Shown one piece after another: positions 1 through 32,701 of a stretch of 64,000 nt of DNA. The position numbers and the translations under genes are program-made. Positions within the stretch are counted from its first letter, which is position 1, and every line of letters begins with the position of its first letter. The stretch is taken from positions 7,212 through 71,211 of IMG/VR virus record IMGVR_UViG_3300009873_000010, one strand, 5' to 3'. Source of the stretch: a virus. Taxonomy: Duplodnaviria > Caudoviricetes. The notes under the pieces are model-generated. The model made no database searches. It was given only the letters and a program-made list of their open reading frames with translations, and was not told where the DNA came from.

Positions 1-67
1 GGAAAGCTGGGACGGTACAGGCACTTTTACAGGAGCTCCATATATTCACGTTTACTGGACAGAATAA
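1..67 (+). CDS. 3' end of an upstream gene (partial, ...ESWDGTGTFTGAPYIHVYWTE*)
   Basis: Frame open from position 2 to TAA 65-67, 7 nt before the next ATG. Confidence 0.6.
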   Translation, partial: ESWDGTGTFTGAPYIHVYWTE

Positions 68-74
68 AACAACA

Positions 75-1139
75 ATGAAGCAGAAATTATTTGCAATCTT
101 AGTATTTACTTTATTTGCGAGCATGGCATTTGCTCAGCAAGACCGCGCAATACGCGACACAGGCGGTGCAACGACAGAGCACGACACTTCTGCAACATTT
201 CATGTGCGCCTTACTTTCGGTGATGAGTATAGTCTGTCACTGGCTACTCTGGACACCGCAGACATCATATCAATCTATGGAGGCGCACAGACTGGCAACC
301 CTTCCACAATAACTTTGCCTGAATTAGGCAGTACAGGTAAATACGATGGTAAGTGGATTCACATTCGAGGCTCAGCAAGCGGCGAAGCAGGTGCAGCACC
401 TTTCGTAATAACACACGAAACTACACCGACAGACATACTTGTGTTGCATCAGCAAACAGGCTCTAAAAAAGGCAATGACACGATCTATTCTACATACGGC
501 GACAACTATCGTTACTATATAAGCAATGATCGCTACTATCGTTATGCTCAAGCGCCTGTAGTATGGCAAAAGACAAACGTAACTAACCTTACAAAAGCAG
601 ATGGACAAGTAGGCGATATTGCAATTAATGCAGCTAAAGACACAATTGCATTCTTTGCAGCCTACTATCCGTGGGTTATACTTGTACCAGTAGGCGGTGC
701 AGCTGCACCTAGTACTAGTTTCGGCATAATGTATGGCAGCGACACTGGTGACTCATTTGTAACTACTGGCTGGACTAAGATAACTGGTGGCGCTATATCC
801 GGCGCAACTTTAGGTGACTGGACGTTTAATGGCACACTTGATAGACTTGAGTACTCTGGCGTAAATGGTGTATACTACAAAGTAGACTTTCATATAGCAG
901 GTTTTGTAGCTAACTCCAATCTAGTAACAATAACTGTAAACAAAAATACTACAGCTACTAGAGCTATTAGCAAAGTAGACATGCTAAATACAGGCACACG
1001 CCACCAAATGAGTGGCTCTGACATACTCTCATTTAATAATGGTGACTATCTTGAAATTGGTGGCCAAGTTAACGCAGTAAACACAACTTTCGACACTTCT
1101 ACTTTACAATTGGTTGTTTCAAAAGTTGTAGGGCAATAA
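75..1139 (+). CDS. Signal-peptide protein with C-terminal C1q/BclA-like beta-sandwich; possible fibre/receptor-binding protein
   Basis: MKQKLFAILVFTLFASMAFA|QQ signal peptide; Thr/Gly-rich; C-terminal GVYYKVDFHI...LSFNNGDYLEI pattern. Confidence 0.5.
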   Translation: MKQKLFAILVFTLFASMAFAQQDRAIRDTGGATTEHDTSATFHVRLTFGDEYSLSLATLDTADIISIYGGAQTGNPSTITLPELGSTGKYDGKWIHIRGSASGEAGAAPFVITHETTPTDILVLHQQTGSKKGNDTIYSTYGDNYRYYISNDRYYRYAQAPVVWQKTNVTNLTKADGQVGDIAINAAKDTIAFFAAYYPWVILVPVGGAAAPSTSFGIMYGSDTGDSFVTTGWTKITGGAISGATLGDWTFNGTLDRLEYSGVNGVYYKVDFHIAGFVANSNLVTITVNKNTTATRAISKVDMLNTGTRHQMSGSDILSFNNGDYLEIGGQVNAVNTTFDTSTLQLVVSKVVGQ

Positions 1140-1159
1140 CTAACAAACTTATCCCATGA

Positions 1160-1747
1160 ATGACTATCTGGTACGTACTAGCTCATGTTACATTGAGCGT
1201 TACAACGATACTTATGCTCGTAGTCGCAAGAAACAGTATAATAAGTTATGCGAATAGAACAACTGTACGCACTATAAGTGCTATATTTGAAGTAATGATG
1301 CGGCTGTTAAACGAAACAACTTCGCATCGAGTTTTACTAATCGCGCTGCACAATGGTGGCAAAGTACTCACACTGAAGAGTAAGAAGTCTATAACTATAA
1401 TTGAGGAAGTGCACGACAGCAGTGTGAAACCTATAAAGCAAGACTTTCAAGATTATGATGTTGGCAGCGATGTTATAAGAGTTCTGGACACTTTAATGCG
1501 CGACAAACAGCTGATAAAAAACACTAATGAATTACAAGTAGGTCTGTTTCAAGATATGCAATATATAGATCAAGCGGAGTCTTTCGCTCTATTTGACATA
1601 GGCTATGCGAAAGGCTTGTATTTTTATATGCTAGTAAGTGCGCATGACACAGACCAATATTATGCGCCTGAGCAATATCGCAAATTGCATATAGGGCAGC
1701 AGAAGATAAAGAAGCTTATTTATAGTAATTCATTTTTTACAATCTAA
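1160..1747 (+). CDS. Membrane-anchored hypothetical protein (holin/antiholin-like topology possible)
   Basis: One N-terminal hydrophobic helix followed by a soluble domain. Confidence 0.4.
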   Translation: MTIWYVLAHVTLSVTTILMLVVARNSIISYANRTTVRTISAIFEVMMRLLNETTSHRVLLIALHNGGKVLTLKSKKSITIIEEVHDSSVKPIKQDFQDYDVGSDVIRVLDTLMRDKQLIKNTNELQVGLFQDMQYIDQAESFALFDIGYAKGLYFYMLVSAHDTDQYYAPEQYRKLHIGQQKIKKLIYSNSFFTI

Positions 1748-1759
1748 ATACCTTCGATT

Positions 1760-3289
1760 ATGTCACTAGCACTTAAGCTCAAAAGAGCTAAGTATGCCCG
1801 CAAACTTGCTACACTACAAAAGCAGTATGCAAGGCAGCTTGAGGAAGGTTGGGATATTGTTTTGCCTCCACCAATCGACGCTATTGTGCCAGACGAATAT
1901 CAGGCACAAGTCGGCAACTGGGCATATCAGTATTGCCAAATTCCGTTCATCGAAACTGCGTTGAAAAACGGCCACAAATTCCAACGTAAAGTCTACATCT
2001 GTACTGCTGACACAGGTGCATTGAGCAGAAACAAGTATCTGAGCCCTTACATCAATGCCGATCTGGCACATGACCATACAGGCTCAGGAGAGCTTTACGA
2101 CGAGCATGGGCATTTCAGTCACTGCAAAGGCATCAACCTTGCAAAGAAAGACGGTGCTAATCTCGGCCTGCTGCATCATCCGCTTATTCCTATTGACTAC
2201 TTTGTAGGCTTTGGGCGTAAAGTGCTAAGCAAATACGGCTCAGGCTCTTACAACTGGATTGAGCAATTCGGCGATAAGCTTATCGACGACATTCGCAAGA
2301 AGGTAATTCCGGAAGATGCTGCTGTTATTGTAAACATGTCGTTTGGCGGTGGCGGCACACATGCAGGTGTAGAGCGCGTAATGAATGAGCTGCGTAGCAT
2401 GGGTGTGTTTTTGCATGCATCTTCGGGTAATGCAAATGGCCCAGTAGGCTTTCCTGCAAAGCTAACATCAGTGTTTGCTATCGGCGCACACGACCAGGAT
2501 GAAAAGCGCGCGTCATTCTCTAACTTTGGCCCTGAGCTATTCGCTTCAGGCGCTGGTGTAGGCATCACATCTACCGGTGATGGTGAGGACGAGCTGCTGA
2601 CATGGAGCGGCACTTCAATGGCGGGCCCAACTTATGGCGCGAACATGGCGTTGCTGCTTAGCTTGGCGCCGGACATTCGCAATATGGACGATCTGGAAGC
2701 ATTTCTTGCCGACGGCAATCTTAAAGATGTAGGCGATCCTGGCCGCGACAGCTACTTTGGCCATGGTATTGCTCGGCTCGACTATCTTGTAGACGAGCCT
2801 ATAGGTGGTGACCCACCGCCGCCTCCACCGCCACCGGAGCCCGAGCCGCCTAAATATGACTATCCAACGCCGCGCGTAACCCGCCTTGAGCTAAAGGGCG
2901 ACTTCCGCATGTGGTGGAGGACTATGGGTGGCGAAACTACCGGCCAAGGCACAGCAACTACGATGCTTGAGAGCGAGCTGAGCTCTAATGAGATGCTACC
3001 GATTCATGGTTACACGAACACAGTTACTCTTGAGGACTTGGTGCTTGCGCTGGAAACAAAGTCATTCGCAGCACCTGCCGCTGAACTGCATGAAAAGCTT
3101 ACTAAAGAGTTCTTTGCAAATGGCAAGCGTGGTGTAATAATGCCACAGCCTGCTGATGCTCAGGATGCAGCAGAATGGGGTTTGTTTTTCCTTAAGCTCC
3201 TGGCTAACAAAGAGGGTGGCGAGATCGTAGCCTGCGCCGCTCGTGCTACATTCGACGGTGTAGTTACTGAGGTTACGAACAGAGTGTGA
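1760..3289 (+). CDS. Subtilisin-like S8 serine protease with poly-Pro linker and C-terminal domain
   Basis: ICTADTG (Asp), DEHGHFSHCKG (His), VNMSFGG, ASSGN, ASFSNFG, SGTSMAGP (Ser); PPPPPPPPEPEPP linker. Confidence 0.92.
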   Translation: MSLALKLKRAKYARKLATLQKQYARQLEEGWDIVLPPPIDAIVPDEYQAQVGNWAYQYCQIPFIETALKNGHKFQRKVYICTADTGALSRNKYLSPYINADLAHDHTGSGELYDEHGHFSHCKGINLAKKDGANLGLLHHPLIPIDYFVGFGRKVLSKYGSGSYNWIEQFGDKLIDDIRKKVIPEDAAVIVNMSFGGGGTHAGVERVMNELRSMGVFLHASSGNANGPVGFPAKLTSVFAIGAHDQDEKRASFSNFGPELFASGAGVGITSTGDGEDELLTWSGTSMAGPTYGANMALLLSLAPDIRNMDDLEAFLADGNLKDVGDPGRDSYFGHGIARLDYLVDEPIGGDPPPPPPPPEPEPPKYDYPTPRVTRLELKGDFRMWWRTMGGETTGQGTATTMLESELSSNEMLPIHGYTNTVTLEDLVLALETKSFAAPAAELHEKLTKEFFANGKRGVIMPQPADAQDAAEWGLFFLKLLANKEGGEIVACAARATFDGVVTEVTNRV

Positions 3290-3696
3290 TTATTTCACCT
3301 AAACATACTGCAATGACGCGTACATTTATTACCAGAGCTGCAATGCTGCTATTCGCTTTACTTACAGCTCTGCTGTGTTCTGCTCAAGGCGAGGCGCCTG
3401 AGCTGCCGACTATTCCAGATAACCCTAATGTAGGCGACCTGTTGGGCCTATATGAAGTGCTTTACGGAGCGCTCGTGGTGATCTGGGGCTACGTTGCAAA
3501 AGCCCTTGGTTGGAAAACGGAGAAAATACCATTCGTATTTGTGGTTGTGGCGGGCGCGCTAGTTGTTGGCGGCGTATTTCTGCTGCTCGACCTCAGCGAT
3601 GCTATCACACTCGTGATTTCTTTCCTGCTTTCACTGGGCATTTTCGATGCGATTTTTAAGCCTGTAGAGAAGCTTTTAAAGCAGGCGACGAGCTAA
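3286..3696 (+). CDS. Small multi-pass membrane protein with signal peptide (holin-like candidate)
   Basis: AAMLLFALLTALLCSA|Q then about 3 hydrophobic helices; last gene of the + operon. Confidence 0.45.
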   Translation: MIISPKHTAMTRTFITRAAMLLFALLTALLCSAQGEAPELPTIPDNPNVGDLLGLYEVLYGALVVIWGYVAKALGWKTEKIPFVFVVVAGALVVGGVFLLLDLSDAITLVISFLLSLGIFDAIFKPVEKLLKQATS

Positions 3697-3722
3697 TTGT
3701 ATGGGATTATGGAGTTTTGAGA

Positions 3723-3744
3723 GGGTCGCCTTTAGGGGTGACCC
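3723..3744 (+). terminator. Hairpin at the convergence of the + and - operons
   Basis: GGGTCGCC-tttagg-GGTGACCC, 27 nt after the stop at 3696. Confidence 0.55.
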
Positions 3745-3756
3745 TATCTCTATCTT

Positions 3757-3793
3757 CTAGGCTCGAGCCTGGTTAATCTGGGCTCGAGCCTAG
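3757..3793. repeat. 13-bp perfect inverted repeat whose arms each contain the palindrome GGCTCGAGCC
   Basis: CTAGGCTCGAGCC (3757-3769), 11-nt spacer, GGCTCGAGCCTAG (3781-3793); related AGGCTCGAACCTAG at 3848-3861. Confidence 0.9.
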
Positions 3794-3857
3794 TCGTTTT
3801 ATTTAATATCCTTTATAGAATAGATAGGATATAGGCGCCGAATGACCAGGCTCGAAC

Positions 3858-4178
3858 CTAGGCCTCATCGGGTTGCTCCGGAAGTAGCTCAGATTCCTCT
3901 GTGCTTTTCTTGTAGACCACACGAGTCGTGCGATATGTTTCAGTCTGCAGAGCATTGGGCTTCTCTGAGCCTATAATTTCACGAGCTTTTGCAAGAAGCT
4001 GCACGTCTGTGGGTTTCGCAGGCTGTTCAAGGATAAAGCTGACAGGCAGCATTTGCTTGCTTACAGGCAGACCTGGCGAGCTCGGCTGATCTACGAGAAG
4101 ATTTACCCAGCAGTGCCACTGATTAATGAGTGTAAGTGATGCGTCTCTTTCGAGAACTGCTTTAAGTTCATCTGACAT
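3858..4178 (-). CDS. Hypothetical protein
   Basis: 106-aa ORF with AT-rich leader, last gene of the - operon. Confidence 0.7.
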   Translation of the reverse strand: MSDELKAVLERDASLTLINQWHCWVNLLVDQPSSPGLPVSKQMLPVSFILEQPAKPTDVQLLAKAREIIGSEKPNALQTETYRTTRVVYKKSTEESELLPEQPDEA

Positions 4179-4350
4179 ATTTTTAAAATTTAAAGGTTAA
4201 TAACCGTCCTCTTTAGCCTCAAGTATGCATTGCGCCTTGCTGCTAACTAGCCTTACTGAGCAGAAAGGCATAAAAAATATTACTAAGCGCAGCAGATCGT
4301 TGCGCTCTGTCACAAATGCAAAGCCGAATAATGTGTAATACATGTGGCTA

Positions 4351-4812
4351 TTACTCATAGGACTCAAATTTTATGCTTGCTGCAACTATCATGCCATCGT
4401 CTGCAATAGTTATCTGTGCGTAAGGCAGGCCTGCAACTTCAACTACTAGTTCTTGTATATCAATACCTAGTGCTTGCAGTTGATTTACATTATGGCCATA
4501 CAAAGGTATTTGCATTGTTATGGTAGATTCTAAAGCAGGATCGCCTTGCGAAGCATACACTTTAGACTTCAAGTATAGCACAATAGACATAATGTCGCTG
4601 TGTATAATATGCCTAGGCTTTTGATGCTGCTCTACAACAACATTAATTGTGCATGCTTCATTAAAATCTACACCAGCAAAATCAATGTAGGGCACAATTA
4701 AAAGCGTGTCTAAAATTTCGCTCTCAAAAATAAACTTGCCGACTTTGTATTGCCAGCATACAGGCTTTTTAAAAGCGGCTATGAGCTTATCAATTTCTGG
4801 TGTAAATGACAT
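4351..4812 (-). CDS. Hypothetical protein
   Basis: 153-aa ORF in the - operon. Confidence 0.7.
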   Translation of the reverse strand: MSFTPEIDKLIAAFKKPVCWQYKVGKFIFESEILDTLLIVPYIDFAGVDFNEACTINVVVEQHQKPRHIIHSDIMSIVLYLKSKVYASQGDPALESTITMQIPLYGHNVNQLQALGIDIQELVVEVAGLPYAQITIADDGMIVAASIKFESYE

Positions 4813-4918
4813 TTGCCTGATAATTAATGCTTAATGATGTAAATGCGAAAGGCGATTTGCTGCCATGCCGGATAGGCCTATCTAATATAGGCAGTCGGGT
4901 CGCCAGCATGGCTCTGGC

Positions 4919-5119
4919 TCATGTCCGCACAATGGGCACATATTTTTGCATTTCGTGTAGTAGCTTGAGCGTTTCTTTATAAGCGAAAACTTTTGCATCA
5001 GTATCTGTGCAGCATTCTGCAATCTTGAGACTATAAGCAAGATTGTAACATGTAGATAGAAGCTTGTGTTCATTGCTACCAGGTTTAAATGTTAACCAAT
5101 CAAGTTCTTTTGCCGACAT
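4919..5119 (-). CDS. Hypothetical protein
   Basis: 66-aa ORF overlapping the end of 5100-5342. Confidence 0.55.
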   Translation of the reverse strand: MSAKELDWLTFKPGSNEHKLLSTCYNLAYSLKIAECCTDTDAKVFAYKETLKLLHEMQKYVPIVRT

Positions 5120-5342
5120 ATTTGTTGGGTTGATAGTCTATAGAAGCTTCAGTGAGCACTACAAAGCGCTCATTGCCTGGGCGGAACCAGCTTATGTAAC
5201 CCTTCTGCATCCAATAGCCTATAGTGGTACGGCATACAGTTGGGTGATACCGCTCAATGTATTCGTCAATTGTTATGAAGTCCTGCTTTTCATCGAGTAT
5301 GTCGCTTTTTAGCCACTCCCCCGGTTTACGTTGATTACTCAT
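5100..5342 (-). CDS. Small winged-HTH (MerR/excisionase-like) DNA-binding protein
   Basis: ITIDEYIERY...RTTIGYWMQKGYISWFRPGNERFVV pattern. Confidence 0.55.
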   Translation of the reverse strand: MSNQRKPGEWLKSDILDEKQDFITIDEYIERYHPTVCRTTIGYWMQKGYISWFRPGNERFVVLTEASIDYQPNKYVGKRT

Positions 5343-5863
5343 AGAATGCTTTTGCTTAAATCTTCGTATGTAATGTGTTCAAAGAATTGCGCCGAATCAT
5401 ATATTAGTAAATGCTCACCTTCTGCGATTGGCATTATACGTATATGCGCTATGCTTATGTGTTCTGTTGAAAAAGCTAAATGCCAAGTGCTCGCAGGCAT
5501 AGAGTTCATGCGCATAAATAGCAATGGCACTTTACCTACAGCCTTAGCGTCGCCTTTAGCTTGTTTGAATTTTGTAAAAAATACAGAGTTAGCTCTTAGC
5601 TGCTCGCTTATAGCATAAGCTTTATAGAATTTAGCTTCTACTACAAAATGCCTGTAGTCTGGATTAGTGCTAATAACATCGCCGACTATTTCGCTGCGGT
5701 TACGCCATCTTAAACCACCAGACCTAGGCACGCGGACCCACTCGGCGCCAGACCAAGCTGTCAATGCATGTGCAAGTGCACGCTCATTGCCTGCGCCTTT
5801 CACATTTACATTAATACCCTTGCGTGACAAGAGCTCGCCGAATAGATCGTCGTGTAGGCTCAT
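5339..5863 (-). CDS. Holliday junction resolvase, PD-(D/E)XK (Hjc-like)
   Basis: KGAGNERALA...RVPRSGG...GDVI...VVEAK motifs. Confidence 0.85.
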   Translation of the reverse strand: MSLHDDLFGELLSRKGINVNVKGAGNERALAHALTAWSGAEWVRVPRSGGLRWRNRSEIVGDVISTNPDYRHFVVEAKFYKAYAISEQLRANSVFFTKFKQAKGDAKAVGKVPLLFMRMNSMPASTWHLAFSTEHISIAHIRIMPIAEGEHLLIYDSAQFFEHITYEDLSKSIL

Positions 5864-6105
5864 GCCTCTTGCAGTTCCTGCAGTAAGTCAGGCTCGCCTT
5901 TCTCGGTAGGATACTGCAGCCAATGTAGCACGTCACGTATGCCTTCTTCGTAAGACATGCCATTGAACTTAGTGCCTGCATTGTTTATGATGCGCTCTGC
6001 TTCTGCTTCCAGAGTTTGTACATCGTTTAAGTTACGCACTATAACGAAAGGTAACTTGTCCATAATAAGCTTTTTGGTGAATAATGTCGTGCTATTTAAA
6101 ATCAA
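5860..6105 (-). CDS. Hypothetical protein
   Basis: First ORF of the - operon, coupled to the resolvase. Confidence 0.6.
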   Translation of the reverse strand: MILNSTTLFTKKLIMDKLPFVIVRNLNDVQTLEAEAERIINNAGTKFNGMSYEEGIRDVLHWLQYPTEKGEPDLLQELQEA

Positions 6106-6109
6106 TAAT

Positions 6110-6117
6110 CAAAATTA
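6110..6117 (-). promoter_or_regulatory. Leftward -7 box (TAATTTTG on the - strand), divergent from the 6181 promoter
   Basis: CAAAATTA on + fits TAnnTTTG on -, just upstream of the - operon. Confidence 0.5.
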
Positions 6118-6180
6118 ATTAAAATTGCATTAGAAATCAAATTTGTCGAAATTTATTTTACTTTTTCTCCTTATATATAT

Positions 6181-6188
6181 TATCTTTG
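6181..6188 (+). promoter_or_regulatory. Bacteroidota-type promoter -7 box TATCTTTG; other copies at 7592, 8569, 9761, 14924, 18140, 22506, 24993, 39385, 39514; variants at 7735, 30872, 37947 and 39094 (-)
   Basis: Copies lie in AT-rich gaps upstream of gene starts (7592 is farther upstream), often preceded by AAATTT(C/G)ACTTTTT; matches TAnnTTTG. Confidence 0.85.
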
Positions 6189-6205
6189 AATCAAAATAGA
6201 AAATT

Positions 6206-7573
6206 ATGAAATTAAGCTTTCAGGAAGATGTGTTAAAATATGTAATGCAAGAGCGCTTAGGGCACTACATAGGCTACTTAGAGAAAGACGCGTTCGACTT
6301 ACATGAGCACAGAATAATCTTGGATTTAGTAAAAGGCTACTATGCTCGCTATAAAGTAATGCCCACTAAGCATTCAATTGTGCACTTCTTTAATGAAAGC
6401 GCAGAAGCTATGGGCTTATCAGAAGAATTGGCAAGCATACTGTTAGAAACTGTGTTGAGCCTTTACACTGATAAACTAGAAGCAGACGCGCCTTATGTTG
6501 AAGATAAGCTGATAGAGTTCTGCAAAACACAAGGCGCTAGACGTATCTTTGAGGAATTTAGTGCAGAGCTCGCAGAAAACACATACGTTAGCGATGCAGA
6601 CATAGCAAAGATGTATCGTAAGATGGCGACTCTTGTTAACTTAGGGCAGCACACAGAGCAATCAGTGCAAGGGCATTGGTTGATAAAAGAAACTTACACA
6701 AAGCTAGCTCAAGAAGGCCATCCAACATATTTGCAAGCTCTTAATAATATGACAGCTGCGGGTGGCTTTCACACACCACAACTGATTATTTGGATGTCTG
6801 AACCAAAGGGTTTTAAGACAGGCTTAACTATTTCAGTCGCTGTGCAATATGTGCGAATGGGCTATAATGTGTTCTATGCAGACACAGAGAACTTTGTAGA
6901 TGATATTATTGAGCGTGCTGAGCAGGCTATGACTGAAATGACTGTTACAGAACTGCGTGATAATATGAAGTACTTGCGCAACTTAAAGCTGCAATACAGG
7001 CATACGCAAGGTGAAATGCGTGCAGAGTTTTTTATGCCTAAAAAAGCTACACTAGTAGATGTAGACATAAAACTTCAGCAGCTCAAGGAAGAACACAACT
7101 GGGTACCAGATATTATAGTGTACGACTATTTGGATAATTTCGAGCCTGCTGGCAAAGATTTGCAGAAAAGATTAGCTATTCAGGACGTATACTTTCATGC
7201 GATTAGGCTCAACGTGAAGTACGGCACGTTCGCATTCTCGCCCTCACAGGTCGGACGACAGGCGGTGAATAAGGCAGTTATAAAGATGACAGACTTTGCA
7301 GAGGATTTCGGCAAAGCAGCTAATGCACATGCAGCATTTGCATTATGTAGAACAGACGAAGAGCGCAAAGCAGGTGTAGCACGAGTAGTTGCAGTAATGC
7401 AACGTAAAGGCAAAAATGCTCAGAAGGCTATACCTTGCTTTATAGAAGTAGACGAAGATCGCATGCTTATACACGAGATAACTATGGAGCAGTGGGAAGA
7501 GCGAGTCAAGATTGCAATGCAAGAGCGCGATGACGACGACAGCGATTTTGACACAGATGTAACTGATGTTTGA
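6206..7573 (+). CDS. dnaB: Replicative DnaB-like (SF4) helicase
   Basis: Walker A-like SEPKGFKT, Walker B IIVYDYLD, SPSQVGR, DFAEDFGKA motifs; acidic tail. Confidence 0.85.
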   Translation: MKLSFQEDVLKYVMQERLGHYIGYLEKDAFDLHEHRIILDLVKGYYARYKVMPTKHSIVHFFNESAEAMGLSEELASILLETVLSLYTDKLEADAPYVEDKLIEFCKTQGARRIFEEFSAELAENTYVSDADIAKMYRKMATLVNLGQHTEQSVQGHWLIKETYTKLAQEGHPTYLQALNNMTAAGGFHTPQLIIWMSEPKGFKTGLTISVAVQYVRMGYNVFYADTENFVDDIIERAEQAMTEMTVTELRDNMKYLRNLKLQYRHTQGEMRAEFFMPKKATLVDVDIKLQQLKEEHNWVPDIIVYDYLDNFEPAGKDLQKRLAIQDVYFHAIRLNVKYGTFAFSPSQVGRQAVNKAVIKMTDFAEDFGKAANAHAAFALCRTDEERKAGVARVVAVMQRKGKNAQKAIPCFIEVDEDRMLIHEITMEQWEERVKIAMQERDDDDSDFDTDVTDV

Positions 7574-19969: not shown

Positions 19970-20692
19970 ATGTACCATAAAGACGCTGTTTCTTTTACAG
20001 ACGCTTACATTTGGTTGATGAAGCGCATACTCAAGTCTGGCACTGATGTAAATTGCAGACTTGGTGGCATGAAGGAAGTGCTCGGCGCGTCATATACTCT
20101 GCAGTATTGTAGCAATCTTGCGCACGCACAGCCAGATAGCAAGCTAACTAAGCGCAATTTCAAGTATGATTTTGCAATTAAGCATTTTGAATGGCTTATG
20201 GCAGGCAAGACAGACATGTCTGAGCTGCTTGGCACAAATGCAAATGCTGCAAATTTCATGCCAGGTGACGAAATTCCGGAAGGCTTTACAACGGCTTATG
20301 GCCCTCGCATAACTCGCCAGTTGCCTGGCATAATTAAATTGCTTACTGACGAGTCGAACACAAGGCGCGCAGTTATGCATATACTTGAAGAGAAAGATAA
20401 GCTGATATGGGACTTGGACACAAAGCTGGAGTACCCGTGCACTAGCCATCTGCATTTCTTTGTGCGCGGCGATTTCTTACACACAATAGTTGTAATGCGC
20501 TCCAATAATGTTACAACTACTATGTGTTACGATGTGTCTGCATTTTGGTTGCTTAGCAACTATCTTTGCTATGTGCTACAATTGCGCAATGGCAACTTTA
20601 CAATGCAAATAGGCTCAGCGCACATACTGTATTCTGAGCGAGAGCTCGCTAGTGCAATTATTGACCAAGCAAAAACTCTACAACTATGTTGA
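19970..20692 (+). CDS. Thymidylate-synthase-fold dCMP-modifying enzyme (putative dCMP hydroxylase or hydroxymethylase)
   Basis: AYGPR, DESNTRRA, YPCT catalytic Cys, MRSNN, GSAHI; Asp at the ThyA Asn177 position. Confidence 0.8.
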   Translation: MYHKDAVSFTDAYIWLMKRILKSGTDVNCRLGGMKEVLGASYTLQYCSNLAHAQPDSKLTKRNFKYDFAIKHFEWLMAGKTDMSELLGTNANAANFMPGDEIPEGFTTAYGPRITRQLPGIIKLLTDESNTRRAVMHILEEKDKLIWDLDTKLEYPCTSHLHFFVRGDFLHTIVVMRSNNVTTTMCYDVSAFWLLSNYLCYVLQLRNGNFTMQIGSAHILYSERELASAIIDQAKTLQLC

Positions 20693-21390
20693 GCAAACTA
20701 TGTGTTAATTCTATGGAGTACAAAGGCAAGCTTGTTGAATATTACATGCGGCCTGGCACCTCTGATAAGTTCGTAATGGAAGAGCAAGACTACGAGTGCA
20801 TAAAGCTAAATAAAGATGATGTTTGGCTTGACATCGGAGCTAACATAGGTGCTTTTCCAATAAAGTATGCGAAGCATGTAGGGCACATTTTGTGTTTTGA
20901 GCCAAATCGTGAAAATTATGGAGTGCTTCTGCATAATCTTGAGCACCACAGATTGCTCAATGAAGCAAATGTATATTCATATAACAGTGCAGTAATTGCA
21001 ACAGGCACAGCTTTTCAGCCTTTGTATGTAAACAAAGGTGAGAATAAAGGTAAGCACAGTCTGCAGCCTGGCATTGCGAACGTGCGACCTACTTATAAGG
21101 AGCTTGTGCATTGCATACATTACAGCACTCTAATGGATGCAGACGGAGTAAAGGTGGATATTGAGGGCGGTGAGTACGAGCTACTTAGCCACATGGCTAT
21201 TGTAGGTAAGCTCAATAATACAAAGCAACTTGTGTTTGAGTATCATTACAATCCAGAGTACACAACACAGACACAAGAGCAATTTTTGCGGCTAGAGCAT
21301 ACACTGCGCAATTATGGCAAATTTAGCCATATAGAAATAGTAGCAGAGGACCCTAAGTACAAAACATATATAGTATATTGCCATGCGTAA
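20686..21390 (+). CDS. FkbM-family SAM-dependent methyltransferase
   Basis: WLDIGANIGAF, CFEPNRENY, VKVDIEGGEYELL, LVFEYH. Confidence 0.9.
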   Translation: MLSKLCVNSMEYKGKLVEYYMRPGTSDKFVMEEQDYECIKLNKDDVWLDIGANIGAFPIKYAKHVGHILCFEPNRENYGVLLHNLEHHRLLNEANVYSYNSAVIATGTAFQPLYVNKGENKGKHSLQPGIANVRPTYKELVHCIHYSTLMDADGVKVDIEGGEYELLSHMAIVGKLNNTKQLVFEYHYNPEYTTQTQEQFLRLEHTLRNYGKFSHIEIVAEDPKYKTYIVYCHA

Positions 21391-22480
21391 TTTGCGTACT
21401 ACAATAGGAACTTGCGAGTTCAATATACATAGTTGTGACCCTAGTCTATACAAAGGTGCAACTGGCTTGTTTATACCTGTTTATGGTGCAAGGAGCCATC
21501 TAACTGGTAAATATATGCTTGCTATGGAAGGCAACTTTTGGCTGTCTCTGTATAAGGCAGCTAACATGAACCTTGGCAAGCTCTATCTAACAATACCTAA
21601 GGGCGAGTTCTTGGAGCCTGGCTATATGCAATATATAGTGGACCATGTAATGCCTAAGCTGCCTTTTGAGCTAGTACTTGTGCCTACATACGGTTATGGC
21701 TCAAATGCATATGCTACTCGTGGCAATATGCAAGAGTGGCATGAGTTTGTTGCTGAGGAAAAGTTAATTTTGGAAGCTATTGACGTGCTTTTGTATGCTC
21801 CACCAGTGCTTGGTAGAATATTCGATAGTACGTATTGCAGAGCTGCAATGACATGTGTCATAGTTTACTGGGCTTATGCTATAGCGTCTCAAAATTACAG
21901 ACCTACGTTCTTTGAGGACTTTGCTGAGTATGACAAGTACAACTACAATCATTACAATATGTGGGTAGCAACTGTAGATCAATATGAGCGCTACCAAGAT
22001 GCCCGCATGGAAAACAATTTGTTTAATATAGAGTTATATGAGCAATTGTTCTTGCAGCATCTTAGGCAATCAGACAAAGTGGCAGGGCTCTATAAGCGTG
22101 TGTTTGTGCCTTTCCGCCAATCTGCAGATGGCTACAATGTTCAAGGCATTTTCAATGCTCTGCATACTATTTACCAGCATGATAACATTGAATTTGAATT
22201 GCTCTATACAGCATACAATGATGTCATTCTGGAATTGCCACATGTGCCTGCGTTTAAAGTAGATGGCAACAAAGAATCCTATGTACGCATATTGGAGAAG
22301 CGGCCTATAGTGCCTTTGCTAGCAGACATAGACGGCATATTTCATTTGAGCATATTTGAGCATGCCTACCATAGATGCGAGCTATTGATTGTAGAGAACT
22401 CTTATGTTAAAGCACAGCATACTTTGCCTAAGACTTATACGCAAGAAAATTTACATAATGCATTAAAAAGTATGCTATAA
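21383..22480 (+). CDS. Putative GT-B DNA glycosyltransferase
   Basis: 365 aa; RVFVPFR and SIFEHAY-type C-terminal Rossmann pattern; coupled to the TS homologue and FkbM (family call is inference). Confidence 0.45.
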   Translation: MRNLRTTIGTCEFNIHSCDPSLYKGATGLFIPVYGARSHLTGKYMLAMEGNFWLSLYKAANMNLGKLYLTIPKGEFLEPGYMQYIVDHVMPKLPFELVLVPTYGYGSNAYATRGNMQEWHEFVAEEKLILEAIDVLLYAPPVLGRIFDSTYCRAAMTCVIVYWAYAIASQNYRPTFFEDFAEYDKYNYNHYNMWVATVDQYERYQDARMENNLFNIELYEQLFLQHLRQSDKVAGLYKRVFVPFRQSADGYNVQGIFNALHTIYQHDNIEFELLYTAYNDVILELPHVPAFKVDGNKESYVRILEKRPIVPLLADIDGIFHLSIFEHAYHRCELLIVENSYVKAQHTLPKTYTQENLHNALKSML

Positions 22481-22862: not shown

Positions 22863-23049
22863 AAAAGGTGAAGCGGGTACAGGCAAGCGCCGTTACAACA
22901 AAGCGGGCATTAGAGTACCTAGGCCGGACAAAAAAGACGGCAAAGCAATAGCAAAGGTTATTGCGCAGCACGACACAGGCAAGAAGCAAGCGCCTGCTAA
23001 AATAGTGCTAAAGCAACATCCAGATGGCACAATTGAACGCGTAGACTAA
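22828..23049 (+). CDS. Small basic hypothetical protein
   Basis: K/R-rich 73 aa; TAATG coupling to the kinase. Confidence 0.6.
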   Translation: MADKNKVVKVARKGEAGTGKRRYNKAGIRVPRPDKKDGKAIAKVIAQHDTGKKQAPAKIVLKQHPDGTIERVD

Positions 23050-23621
23050 TGGCAAAATTGTTTATACTTGACGGGCACAGCAGAACAGGCAAATCAACAG
23101 CAGCGCACGAGGTGTGTAAGCGTAATAAAGATGCACGCCTTGTTGCTCTGCAAGATAAGATGCCAATGCAGATCAGTAATTACTTTGAATATTACACAGG
23201 TTGCATTCACTCTGCACAAGCTTTTCTGAAAAGCTCGCACAAGTACGACATCTACGTAATGGATAGGTCTATTTTCAGCGACTTCATATTCGCGCCTGTT
23301 TTTAATAGGTCTACAATAGTAACTGAAGAATATGCAATTGATTTTGCTTATGAGCATGAGATAGTGTTTATAGGCACTTTTGCTGCATACAATTATTACA
23401 GAAAAACTAATAAGGATTCTTTTGCATACACACCAGAGCAATGGCATAGCATAGCACAGCGCACTCAAGAGCTGATGCGCATACTGGCTTCTAGGCCTAA
23501 CAACTATGTGCAGAGTGTTTATGTGGAGAGTGCCGAAGATGTGCATCGCACAATACAAACTGCACTTGAGCTCTATAAATTCTACTACGATGGCTACGGA
23601 CCGACTTACAGAAATTTTTGA
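23049..23621 (+). CDS. Deoxynucleoside monophosphate kinase (thymidylate-kinase-like)
   Basis: FILDGHSRTGKST P-loop; MDRSIFSDFIF motif. Confidence 0.8.
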   Translation: MAKLFILDGHSRTGKSTAAHEVCKRNKDARLVALQDKMPMQISNYFEYYTGCIHSAQAFLKSSHKYDIYVMDRSIFSDFIFAPVFNRSTIVTEEYAIDFAYEHEIVFIGTFAAYNYYRKTNKDSFAYTPEQWHSIAQRTQELMRILASRPNNYVQSVYVESAEDVHRTIQTALELYKFYYDGYGPTYRNF

Positions 23622-23937
23622 AAGGCAAGCAGCTTTTACAAGCAATTTTCATGATGCTACGCCTAGCGGCATAGACGAATGCGAAGAGCTAACAAAGAAT
23701 TACACAATAATGCTTATAAAAGAGCTGACAGAAGTTGTAGATGAGCTCAATTATAAGCTGCATGCGTCAAAGCGTAATGCTATAAACGTAGTTAATGTGC
23801 ACGAAGAGCTAATGGATGTGCAAAAGTTCCTTATAGTTATGATGCAACTATGGGATATTGACGCAGACAAATTCGTTGAGCTCTTTCATACAAAAAGCAC
23901 TATTGTTGAGCAGCGCTATAAAGACAAACAAAGATGA
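23590..23937 (+). CDS. All-alpha NTP pyrophosphohydrolase (dimeric dUTPase/dCTPase-like)
   Basis: EIFERQ, KELTEVVDE, HEELMDVQKF: ExxE...EExxD motifs. Confidence 0.8.
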   Translation: MATDRLTEIFERQAAFTSNFHDATPSGIDECEELTKNYTIMLIKELTEVVDELNYKLHASKRNAINVVNVHEELMDVQKFLIVMMQLWDIDADKFVELFHTKSTIVEQRYKDKQR

Positions 23938-31378: not shown

Positions 31379-31456
31379 AATACATTCTTAGATTTTTTGA
31401 TTGATTAAGTAGTGCACCGCCTATTGGCAGTGCACTTACTTTCTAATTACAACAGT

Positions 31457-32701
31457 ATGCTAGAGTTAATGACAGGTGCAATTTTCACCGACAACCCTAC
31501 GGATTACCCAGAGCAGATAAAAAAATTGAACTCTGACAAAAATAAGTTCGGCAGAGTGCATGAGCTCTATGGCTCTATGCGCGCGTCTGCAATAGGCATA
31601 CCTACAGCAAGGCCGGACTTCCGTTTGCCTGATATTTCGCGAGCCTACTTACAAAGTTACATTGAGAGTTGTCATGCTAATGGGCTTATATTCAATTATA
31701 CTGCTAATGGTCCATTGCTTGGCAATTTGGAAGATATTGATGTGGGCTACGCTAAGCTAATAACCGAACTACAATGGTTAGAGAGCATAGGCGTAGACCG
31801 CATTACAGTTTCGCATCCGCTTGTTATGCAAGCAGTTTGCAAATACACTAGTATGCCGATTGAAGTATCGACAATACTCAATGTATATCAAGCTAATGGC
31901 ATTCGCCAGCTAAAAGAGCAATATCCGAATATAAATAAAGTGTGCATGTCCATAGACCATAATAGGCATCTTGGTACAGTGCGCGCATTACAGCATACTT
32001 GTCTACAATTGGGCATACAGCTAGAAATAATAGCAACTGAGTTTTGCAAGATAGGTACAGGTAATTGCTCACAATTACATCGAGCTCAGTGTTACAATAT
32101 GCACAGCTACAATATGCCGGAAAATGTAGCACGCAAAGGTATAAACTCTGATGGTAGCAAACAACACAGAGACGTAAAAGGCTATCCCTGGAGCGGCAGC
32201 ACAGGTTGCATATTCAATCGAGCAAAAGACAGTGTTGCATGGCTTATGAGCAATACAATATGGCCCAATGACATATTGCGATTTAGCGCGCTGACAAATG
32301 TTGTAAATTTCAAAATAACTACAAGGACAGCTCCTGCTGAATACGCTTTGCAGCTAGCTAGCTTTTATCTTGATGTGAACTATGATGGGCCTTTGGCTGG
32401 CTTATGGCTGCAATTACCTGCGTCTTTGCTGTCTGCACGAGACAAGTTTGATAAAATACAAGGCTCGTTTGTAGACAAAGTGCCTTATTTCTGTGAAGAT
32501 TTGGCTAAACGTAGAACAGTGCGCACTAAGCTCCAAGGCACAATAATTGAGCAAAGCATGAATTTTATGGACTTGTTTTTCGAGTTCCCGTATATAGATT
32601 GGCATCAGATCAATTGGGTAGATAAGCCTACAGATGAATGTGATTTTTACGAGTGCAATTGGCCTTATCTATGGCATAATTACTTACAAACTTTAATATA
32701 A
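31457..32701 (+). CDS. Peptidase U32-family protein (putative Fe-S hydroxylase)
   Basis: GVDRITVSHP, IEVSTI, LEIIATEFCKIGTGNCSQLHRAQCY with E/C/C/C ligand-like pattern; start probably ATG 31457. Confidence 0.72.
   Translation: MLELMTGAIFTDNPTDYPEQIKKLNSDKNKFGRVHELYGSMRASAIGIPTARPDFRLPDISRAYLQSYIESCHANGLIFNYTANGPLLGNLEDIDVGYAKLITELQWLESIGVDRITVSHPLVMQAVCKYTSMPIEVSTILNVYQANGIRQLKEQYPNINKVCMSIDHNRHLGTVRALQHTCLQLGIQLEIIATEFCKIGTGNCSQLHRAQCYNMHSYNMPENVARKGINSDGSKQHRDVKGYPWSGSTGCIFNRAKDSVAWLMSNTIWPNDILRFSALTNVVNFKITTRTAPAEYALQLASFYLDVNYDGPLAGLWLQLPASLLSARDKFDKIQGSFVDKVPYFCEDLAKRRTVRTKLQGTIIEQSMNFMDLFFEFPYIDWHQINWVDKPTDECDFYECNWPYLWHNYLQTLI

Follow-up and report, generated by a model that had tools for sequence, protein, structure and literature searches.

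What reaction can be expected from a thymidylate synthase (TS) homologue in which two folate-handling residues are replaced? The question is raised by an open reading frame at positions 19970–20692 (+ strand, 240 aa, ATG start, TGA stop) of the window, i.e. the whole stretch of 64,000 nucleotides of viral DNA analysed here. A preliminary description, made from the DNA letters, had proposed that the encoded enzyme is cytosine-specific and activates C5 of dCMP through a cysteine adduct for a folate-independent reaction such as hydroxylation. We find it very probable that the frame encodes a 5-hydroxy-dCMP (5hodCMP) synthase, a predicted enzyme in which the TS fold is kept and folate is swapped for flavin. 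This assignment is based on the residue signature, the clade, the fold match and the gene context; substrate, product, cofactor and the later steps are put forward by homology. 5-Hydroxy-dCMP is the first step to sugar-decorated cytosine, which shields phage DNA from host nucleases.

Family membership and residue signature

The frame encodes a thymidylate-synthase-fold protein. It matches Pfam family PF00303 (Thymidylat_synt) with an E-value of 3.8e-13 and 49.6 bits (cut-off 24.3), and phrog_160 among the thymidylate synthase families of PHROG with E 1.7e-27. A HMMER scan of 1.84 billion representatives yielded 3,156 relatives, and 584 library proteins were recovered at E<1e-10. Among 5.8 billion proteins there was only a single close homologue, which is 97% identical and is encoded on a contig of 12.6 kb. 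When 8.8 kb of DNA surrounding the frame were compared to 50,697 phage records by Megablast, zero matches were obtained, and the IMG/VR scan with a back-translated pattern of the protein gave zero relatives. Identity to the verified 5hodCMP synthases is approximately 30%.

The 5hodCMP synthase family was published in 2025–26 with RB69 gp48, DLP3 gp80 and HY126 AfhB. RB69 gp48 and DLP3 gp80 convert dCMP to 5-hydroxy-dCMP, and the combination of D169N, N177D and L143E (E. coli ThyA numbering) is the published signature of these enzymes (Lee et al., NAR 2026, PMC13326640). D169N is diagnostic of the family, and the nine other, metaviromic D169N homologues that were tested all made 5hodC (PMC13326640).

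Reference sequences (E. coli ThyA, T4 gp42, RB69 gp48, Acj9, JS10 and Atu_ph04) were taken from annotated records and aligned with MAFFT in two sets, one of 14 and one of 163 sequences; the register was confirmed by the HMMER alignment of the window protein to PDB 9IQU. More specifically, Cys146 of E. coli ThyA is Cys157 in the window protein (motif YPCT, codon 20438–20440, + strand), Asn177 is Asp188 (MCYD, 20531–20533, +), Asp169 is Asn180 (RSNN, 20507–20509, +), Glu58 is His72 (KHFEW, 20183–20185, +) and Leu143 is Glu154 (20429–20431, +). The cysteine (EYPCT) is invariant in 163/163 aligned sequences. The preliminary description had assigned four of these positions by eye: a kept catalytic cysteine, Asp at position 177 as in T4 dCMP hydroxymethylase, Asn in place of Asp169 and His in place of Glu58. 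All four assignments hold in the alignments with ThyA, T4 gp42 and RB69 gp48, which place no Glu or Asp at positions 58 and 169.

Glu58 and Asp169 in ThyA handle methylene-THF. The window protein resembles E. coli ThyA in its fold, in the Cys146 nucleophile and in the dNMP-binding residues Arg21, Tyr94, Arg126, Arg127, Arg166, Ser167 and His207 (E. coli numbering), which are all retained and include, in the MAFFT alignments, all phosphate-binding arginines of the dNMP site. It differs from ThyA by N177D, D169N, E58H, L143E, W80A and G173T, and the C-terminal segment that closes over folate is missing. The ThyA equivalogs of NCBIfam score it at 30–41 bits, as compared to cut-offs of 108–405 bits. 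With Asp188, Asn180 and His72 at the key positions and equivalog scores below the cut-offs, the protein does not appear to be an enzyme converting dUMP to dTMP.

The histidine at position 72 deserves separate mention. In the clade of Asn169 proteins the corresponding position 58 is occupied by Phe in approximately 80% of the sequences and by other residues, including Met, Leu and Tyr, in the rest; Glu is gone in the window protein too. His at position 58 together with Asn169 was seen in the 163-sequence alignment only in the window protein and its 97% twin. Judged by these columns, His72 is a lineage-specific variant, since 80% of the family has Phe there, and therefore the flavin pocket may differ. 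Natural variation is also seen at the D169 position, where four library proteins inside the 5hodCMP synthase clade (P0018, P0037, P0087 and P0059) have Cys, Ser or His.

Phylogenetic trees place the window protein in one clade with RB69 gp48. In the FastTree tree of 163 sequences it falls into a clade of 78 rows (support 99) together with RB69 gp48, Acj9, JS10, p000v and Atu_ph04. The IQ-TREE analysis (LG+C20) of 58 sequences, a subset from which p000v was left out, gives a clade of 37 rows (SH-aLRT 100) with RB69 gp48, Acj9, JS10 and Atu_ph04. The clade also includes relatives of DLP3 and RL38J1. All residues that are invariant in the clade are present in the window protein (Y110, R132, D143, E154, C157, R177, S178, N180, D188 and H218 in its own numbering). 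RB69 gp48 and DLP3 gp80 have D169N, N177D, L143E and the catalytic Cys in common with the window protein, and belong to the same clade.

TS is a textbook case of a homodimer. The AF2 model of the window protein, for which clade members were aligned as input, reached a pLDDT of 94.2. It superposes best on HY126 AfhB. Foldseek matched it to 9IQC with an E-value of 1.6e-24, TM scores of 0.88/0.90 and an rmsd of 2.0 Å. 9IQC carries the title 'monooxygenase dependent on riboflavin with dCMP and FAD', and 9IQU, which is also among the best Foldseek matches, the title 'phage HY126 dCMP hydroxylase AfhB'. Both entries rank above MilA and all ThyA structures; Foldseek probability is 1.00 to AfhB, MilA and ThyA alike. 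The same two entries are the top PDB sequence matches, and with E 1e-27 to these chains the strength of the family match is well above chance. PMC13326640 refers to He et al. (Nat Chem Biol 2026) for the crystal structure of HY126 AfhB with bound flavin.

HY126 AfhB (9IQC, 9IQU and 9IR2) is similar to the window protein in its TS fold, in length (234–238 aa as compared to 240 aa) and in having the RSxN...D and (L)EYPCT motifs. The two proteins are 26–28% identical; AfhB has Phe where the window protein has His72, and RSQN instead of RSNN. The phage that encodes AfhB is, unlike the one studied here, a T4-like myovirus equipped with the complete arabinose pathway. The window gene is a divergent new member of the 5hodCMP synthase family, and its novelty lies in the lineage and the accessory genes and not in the enzyme class.

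Proposed reaction and origin of the oxygen

On the basis of this homology the following course of the reaction can be proposed. dCMP would be held by the conserved phosphate arginines, and Asp188 would read the N3/N4 face of the base, thereby selecting cytosine. Addition of Cys157 to C6 of dCMP would make C5 nucleophilic. An oxidant derived from reduced flavin and O2, bound in the site that methylene-THF occupies in ThyA, would then hydroxylate C5, and elimination of the thiol would free 5hodCMP. His72 and Asn180 take the places of the folate-handling Glu58 and Asp169. The expectation of cytosine-specific, folate-independent hydroxylation of C5 via a Cys adduct is supported in that the D169N homologues carry out this reaction and the window protein shares their signature, clade and fold.

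Two refinements may be added to the preliminary description. By homology with the characterised members, the oxygen donor is expected to be flavin plus O2: oxygen in 5hodCMP comes from O2, according to 18O2 labelling, and RB69 gp48 and DLP3 gp80 co-purify with an FMN-like flavin (PMC13326640). In addition, a U32-family protein encoded in the window is probably not required for hydroxylation, because RB69 gp48 with or without the kinase is enough for 5hodC formation in E. coli (PMC13326640).

There is no flavin reductase gene in the complete genome, and therefore the phage must rely on its host for reduced flavin. If this host were a strict anaerobe, a reaction that needs O2 would pose a problem. 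On unrelated metagenomic contigs, genes for FMN reductase (PF03358) were observed beside Asn169-type TS genes, with one strong match (L014:12453–12998) and two weak ones (L002:2737–3120 and L003:2681–3064), which fits the need for reduced flavin. At the L014 locus there is also a gene for a SIS isomerase, and the TS protein encoded there has an extension and is 394 aa long.

The oxygen could instead be delivered without O2 by the U32-family protein (31412–32701, + strand, 429 aa; PF01136 E 4.3e-7, phrog_5757 E 1.6e-43), acting like RlhA, TrhP and UbiU/V either in concert with the TS homologue or by a separate anaerobic route that runs in parallel. RlhA, TrhP and UbiU/V are prephenate-dependent, oxygen-independent hydroxylases of the U32 family. 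Homology of the window's U32 protein to RB69 gp50 is clear (34% identical over 293 aa, E 1e-44), and U32 genes are tightly linked to Asn169-type TS genes. The TS gene is located 0.3–1.0 kb downstream of the U32 gene in 14/14 IMG/VR loci (L019–L032), and the spacing between the U32 and TS matches is approximately 0.55 kb in all seven phage records among the matches listed for both. As for the hosts, organism names were listed for 210 of the 222 phage records in which this U32 subfamily occurs, and all of them are from Enterobacterales, a group of facultative anaerobes; the records that were sampled are all T4-like in size. U32 homologues were not found in T4, JS10, Acj9 and Atu_ph04, and the hosts of Acj9 and Atu_ph04 are aerobes. 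Moreover, a Cys that is conserved in the family, located in the RCY motif, can be aligned with UbiU/UbiV, and both phage U32 proteins have a further three Cys residues in common.

Nevertheless, we consider U32-dependent hydroxylation an unlikely explanation. Since RB69 gp48 alone or with the kinase makes 5hodC in E. coli with oxygen from 18O2, U32 would be dispensable aerobically. JS10 is an E. coli phage that has an Asn169 enzyme and lacks U32, which also weakens the idea that U32 strictly tracks facultatively anaerobic hosts. The canonical Cys spacing of the U32 family is absent from the phage proteins, in the window genome the U32 and TS genes are 10.7 kb apart, and no solved-structure match (PDB sequence search) and no specific NCBIfam match was obtained that would back a specific activity. 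The published guess for the phage U32 proteins is 'sugar or heterocycle reductase'. In the window genome the gene is retained despite the missing arabinose-nucleotide genes, and therefore its role should be tied to the chemistry of the base or of the transfer and not to sugar synthesis. This suggests that the function of phage U32 belongs to the core chemistry of 5-hydroxycytosine (5hoC). Flavin- and O2-dependent hydroxylation by the TS homologue remains our preferred reading.

Comparison with folate-dependent dCMP enzymes

It is also necessary to consider that the protein could be a folate-dependent dCMP hydroxymethylase of the T4 gp42 or MilA type, or a dCMP methyltransferase, which would lead to DNA with derivatives of 5hmC or 5mC. 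T4 gp42 has the TS fold, the catalytic Cys, Asp at N177 and an acidic residue at L143, as does the window protein, and its substrate dCMP is the predicted substrate of the window enzyme. The best annotated tblastn matches are T4-like gp42 homologues, some of which are labelled dCMP hydroxymethylase, and in the fold comparison MilA comes directly after AfhB. However, T4 gp42, which uses methylene-THF and produces 5hmdCMP, keeps Glu60 and Asp171 (E58 and D169 in E. coli).

Two residue classes can be distinguished among the best 150 of the 3,156 relatives. Approximately 77 sequences are T4 gp42-like with E58/D143/D169/D177, and approximately 70 are RB69 gp48-like with a hydrophobic residue at 58 and E143/N169/D177. 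The window protein sides with the second class at columns 92, 127, 133, 143, 169, 173 and 209, four of which (92, 133, 173 and 209) are class-discriminating columns in addition to those of the signature. In the Asp169 class, Glu58 is present in 93% and Asp169 in 100% of the sequences; both are missing in the window protein. Gly173, located beside the folate site in E. coli ThyA, is Thr in the window protein. T4 gp42 is outside the window clade (support 99–100) in both trees, and in the IQ-TREE subset so is every Asp169 row. With Glu58 and Asp169 replaced and a different clade, the window protein does not look like a dCMP hydroxymethylase of the T4 gp42 type, and we regard folate-dependent hydroxymethylation or methylation as very improbable.

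The labels of the database matches also need caution, for several 'hydroxymethylases' (Acj9, p000v) are Asn169-type proteins. The proteins of p000v (L007:283–999) and Acj9 (gp42, L005:292–996) are annotated as dCMP hydroxymethylase or 5-hydroxymethyltransferase. Their F58/E143/N169/D177 residues and their grouping with RB69 gp48 make it probable that both are misnamed 5hodCMP synthases.

It is hardly to be expected that the enzyme is AfhB-like with an altered substrate or product (hydroxylation of dUMP or CMP, or other C5 chemistry via His72) or a weak paralogue: His72 is unique within the clade to the window protein and its twin, the branch of the window lineage is long (1.4 substitutions per site in IQ-TREE) and natural variants at position 169 occur inside the clade, but Asp188 favours cytosine, the deoxynucleotide context (PolA, kinase and NTP pyrophosphatase) favours dCMP and every clade-invariant residue is in place.

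Neighbouring genes and the phage

The gene of the putative 5hodCMP synthase is part of a replication and nucleotide-metabolism module, where it follows the genes for a family-A DNA polymerase, a gp32-like SSB and a NinB-like protein. It is followed by a gene for an FkbM-family SAM-dependent methyltransferase (20686–21390, + strand, 234 aa; PF05050 E 1.2e-9, TIGR01444 E 7e-17, above cut-off) and by a gene for a predicted GT-B-fold glycosyltransferase (21383–22480, + strand, 365 aa; phrog_3891 E 1.8e-11). The start of the FkbM gene overlaps the stop of the hydroxylase gene by 7 nt, and its own stop overlaps the start of the glycosyltransferase gene by 8 nt. The order hydroxylase–FkbM–glycosyltransferase is also found on the contig of the 97%-identical homologue, and there is no FkbM gene in the other Asn169 loci examined. 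The PDB sequence search with the FkbM protein gave nothing. Pelagibacter phage HTVC112P encodes the nearest phage FkbM homologue; it has no TS homologue nearby and therefore gives no hint on the substrate of FkbM.

As judged from profile comparison, the 365-aa protein belongs, distantly but securely, to the RB69 gp46:47 / DLP3 gp79 / JS10_0038 family. Comparison to the RB69 gp46:47 / JS10_0038 family by hhalign gave a probability of 98.8% (E 4.8e-17, 293 columns), and JS10_0038 matches the same phrog_3891 at 3e-159. The RB69 gp46:47 family is the predicted base-proximal 5hoC glycosyltransferase. The tblastn matches of the 365-aa protein adjoin the TS homologue in arabinosyl-5hoC phages, e.g. 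Serratia phage LC53. Its AF2 model (pLDDT 69) matches GT-B enzymes only, among them MshA (3c4q); for RB69 gp46:47, too, 3c4q is the reported best match.

Further downstream are genes for a P-loop nucleotide kinase (23049–23621, + strand, 190 aa; phrog_761 E 2.4e-9, BLASTP to RB69 gp45 E 7e-6) and for an all-alpha NTP pyrophosphohydrolase of the MazG / dimeric-dUTPase-like type (23506–23937, + strand, with an uncertain start at 23506 or 23590). The kinase is likely a 5hodCMP kinase. The pyrophosphohydrolase matches PF08761 with E 7.7e-4, which is below the cut-off, and phrog_173 with E 9.9e-6; the PDB sequence search gave nothing. We regard it as a candidate for a dCTPase that provides dCMP, and we go no further than that because similarity to the dCTPases of T4 and RB69 is not detectable.

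Taken as a pathway, dCMP for hydroxylation would probably be formed from dCTP by the NTP pyrophosphatase, the neighbouring kinase and the host NDP kinase would convert 5hodCMP to 5hodCTP, and the phage PolA would put 5hodCTP into DNA in place of dC. The 5-OH group could serve as the acceptor for the downstream glycosyltransferase, and FkbM might methylate either this group or the sugar. The module resembles that of RB69 in having homologues of the adjacent glycosyltransferase (gp46:47), the kinase (gp45) and U32 (gp50). It differs from RB69 and DLP3 by the absence of arabinose-5-P isomerase, sugar kinase/uridylyltransferase and HAD phosphatase and by the FkbM methyltransferase located between hydroxylase and glycosyltransferase. 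No SIS isomerase, NTP-transferase or homologue of RB69 gp51 or gp52 is encoded in the complete 71-kb genome, and with the sugar-nucleotide genes absent the sugar donor must come from the host.

The pathway possibly leads to a new derivative of 5-hydroxycytosine. A more specific and speculative proposal, which we put forward as a possibility to which we give rather less than even weight, is that the translationally coupled hydroxylase–FkbM–glycosyltransferase operon produces an undescribed cytosine hypermodification (O-methylated glycosyl-5-hydroxycytosine or 5-methoxycytosine) and that U32 is an O2-independent hydroxylase or redox partner for low-oxygen hosts. U32 is co-inherited with the 5hodCMP synthase family in two unrelated phage lineages. 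It seems that the core module of hydroxylase, base-proximal glycosyltransferase, kinase and U32 moves between unrelated phages without the arabinose genes and that it can gain new tailoring enzymes, here the FkbM methyltransferase. The locus thus offers a starting point for finding a new DNA modification and for assigning a role to phage U32.

Formation of the 5-hydroxycytosine precursor by a TS homologue switched from folate to flavin was described in 2025–26 mainly for T4-like phages and Pootjesviridae. The present analysis puts a predicted 5hodCMP synthase into a PolA-type phage that probably infects Bacteroidota, and the D169N signature was recognisable from the raw sequence alone. The IMG/VR record is complete, with 71,211 bases and direct terminal repeats (CheckV completeness 100%), and the window covers 64,000 of these bases; the terminal repeat is an exact direct repeat of 144 bp. 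The DNA polymerase is at most approximately 26% identical to that of any isolate. Unlike RB69 and DLP3, which have T4-like genomes, this phage has a PolA-type replisome and a 71-kb genome with a tape-measure gene. There are no tRNA genes in the complete genome.

The host is probably a member of Bacteroidota, because a Shine–Dalgarno-like motif is found upstream of only 4 of the 59 genes, which is the background rate, the leaders are A-rich (45% A) and the nearest atlas clusters of the endolysin are mostly from Bacteroidota. A search of genome contigs with the endolysin for the host gave nothing. Bacteroides phage BF503P1, a phage of a strict anaerobe, was considered as an example of an Asn169-type enzyme under anaerobic conditions and rejected, as both of its TS homologues are Asp169-type. 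These two TS-fold paralogues (L017:3098–3904 and 5977–6657) differ at position 58, and the full folate-type pattern of Glu58 and Asp169 is found in the 5977–6657 copy only. Upstream of the window, at genome bases 35–6562, an ORF of 2,175 aa has a sub-threshold match to a T9SS C-terminal sorting domain in its middle part.
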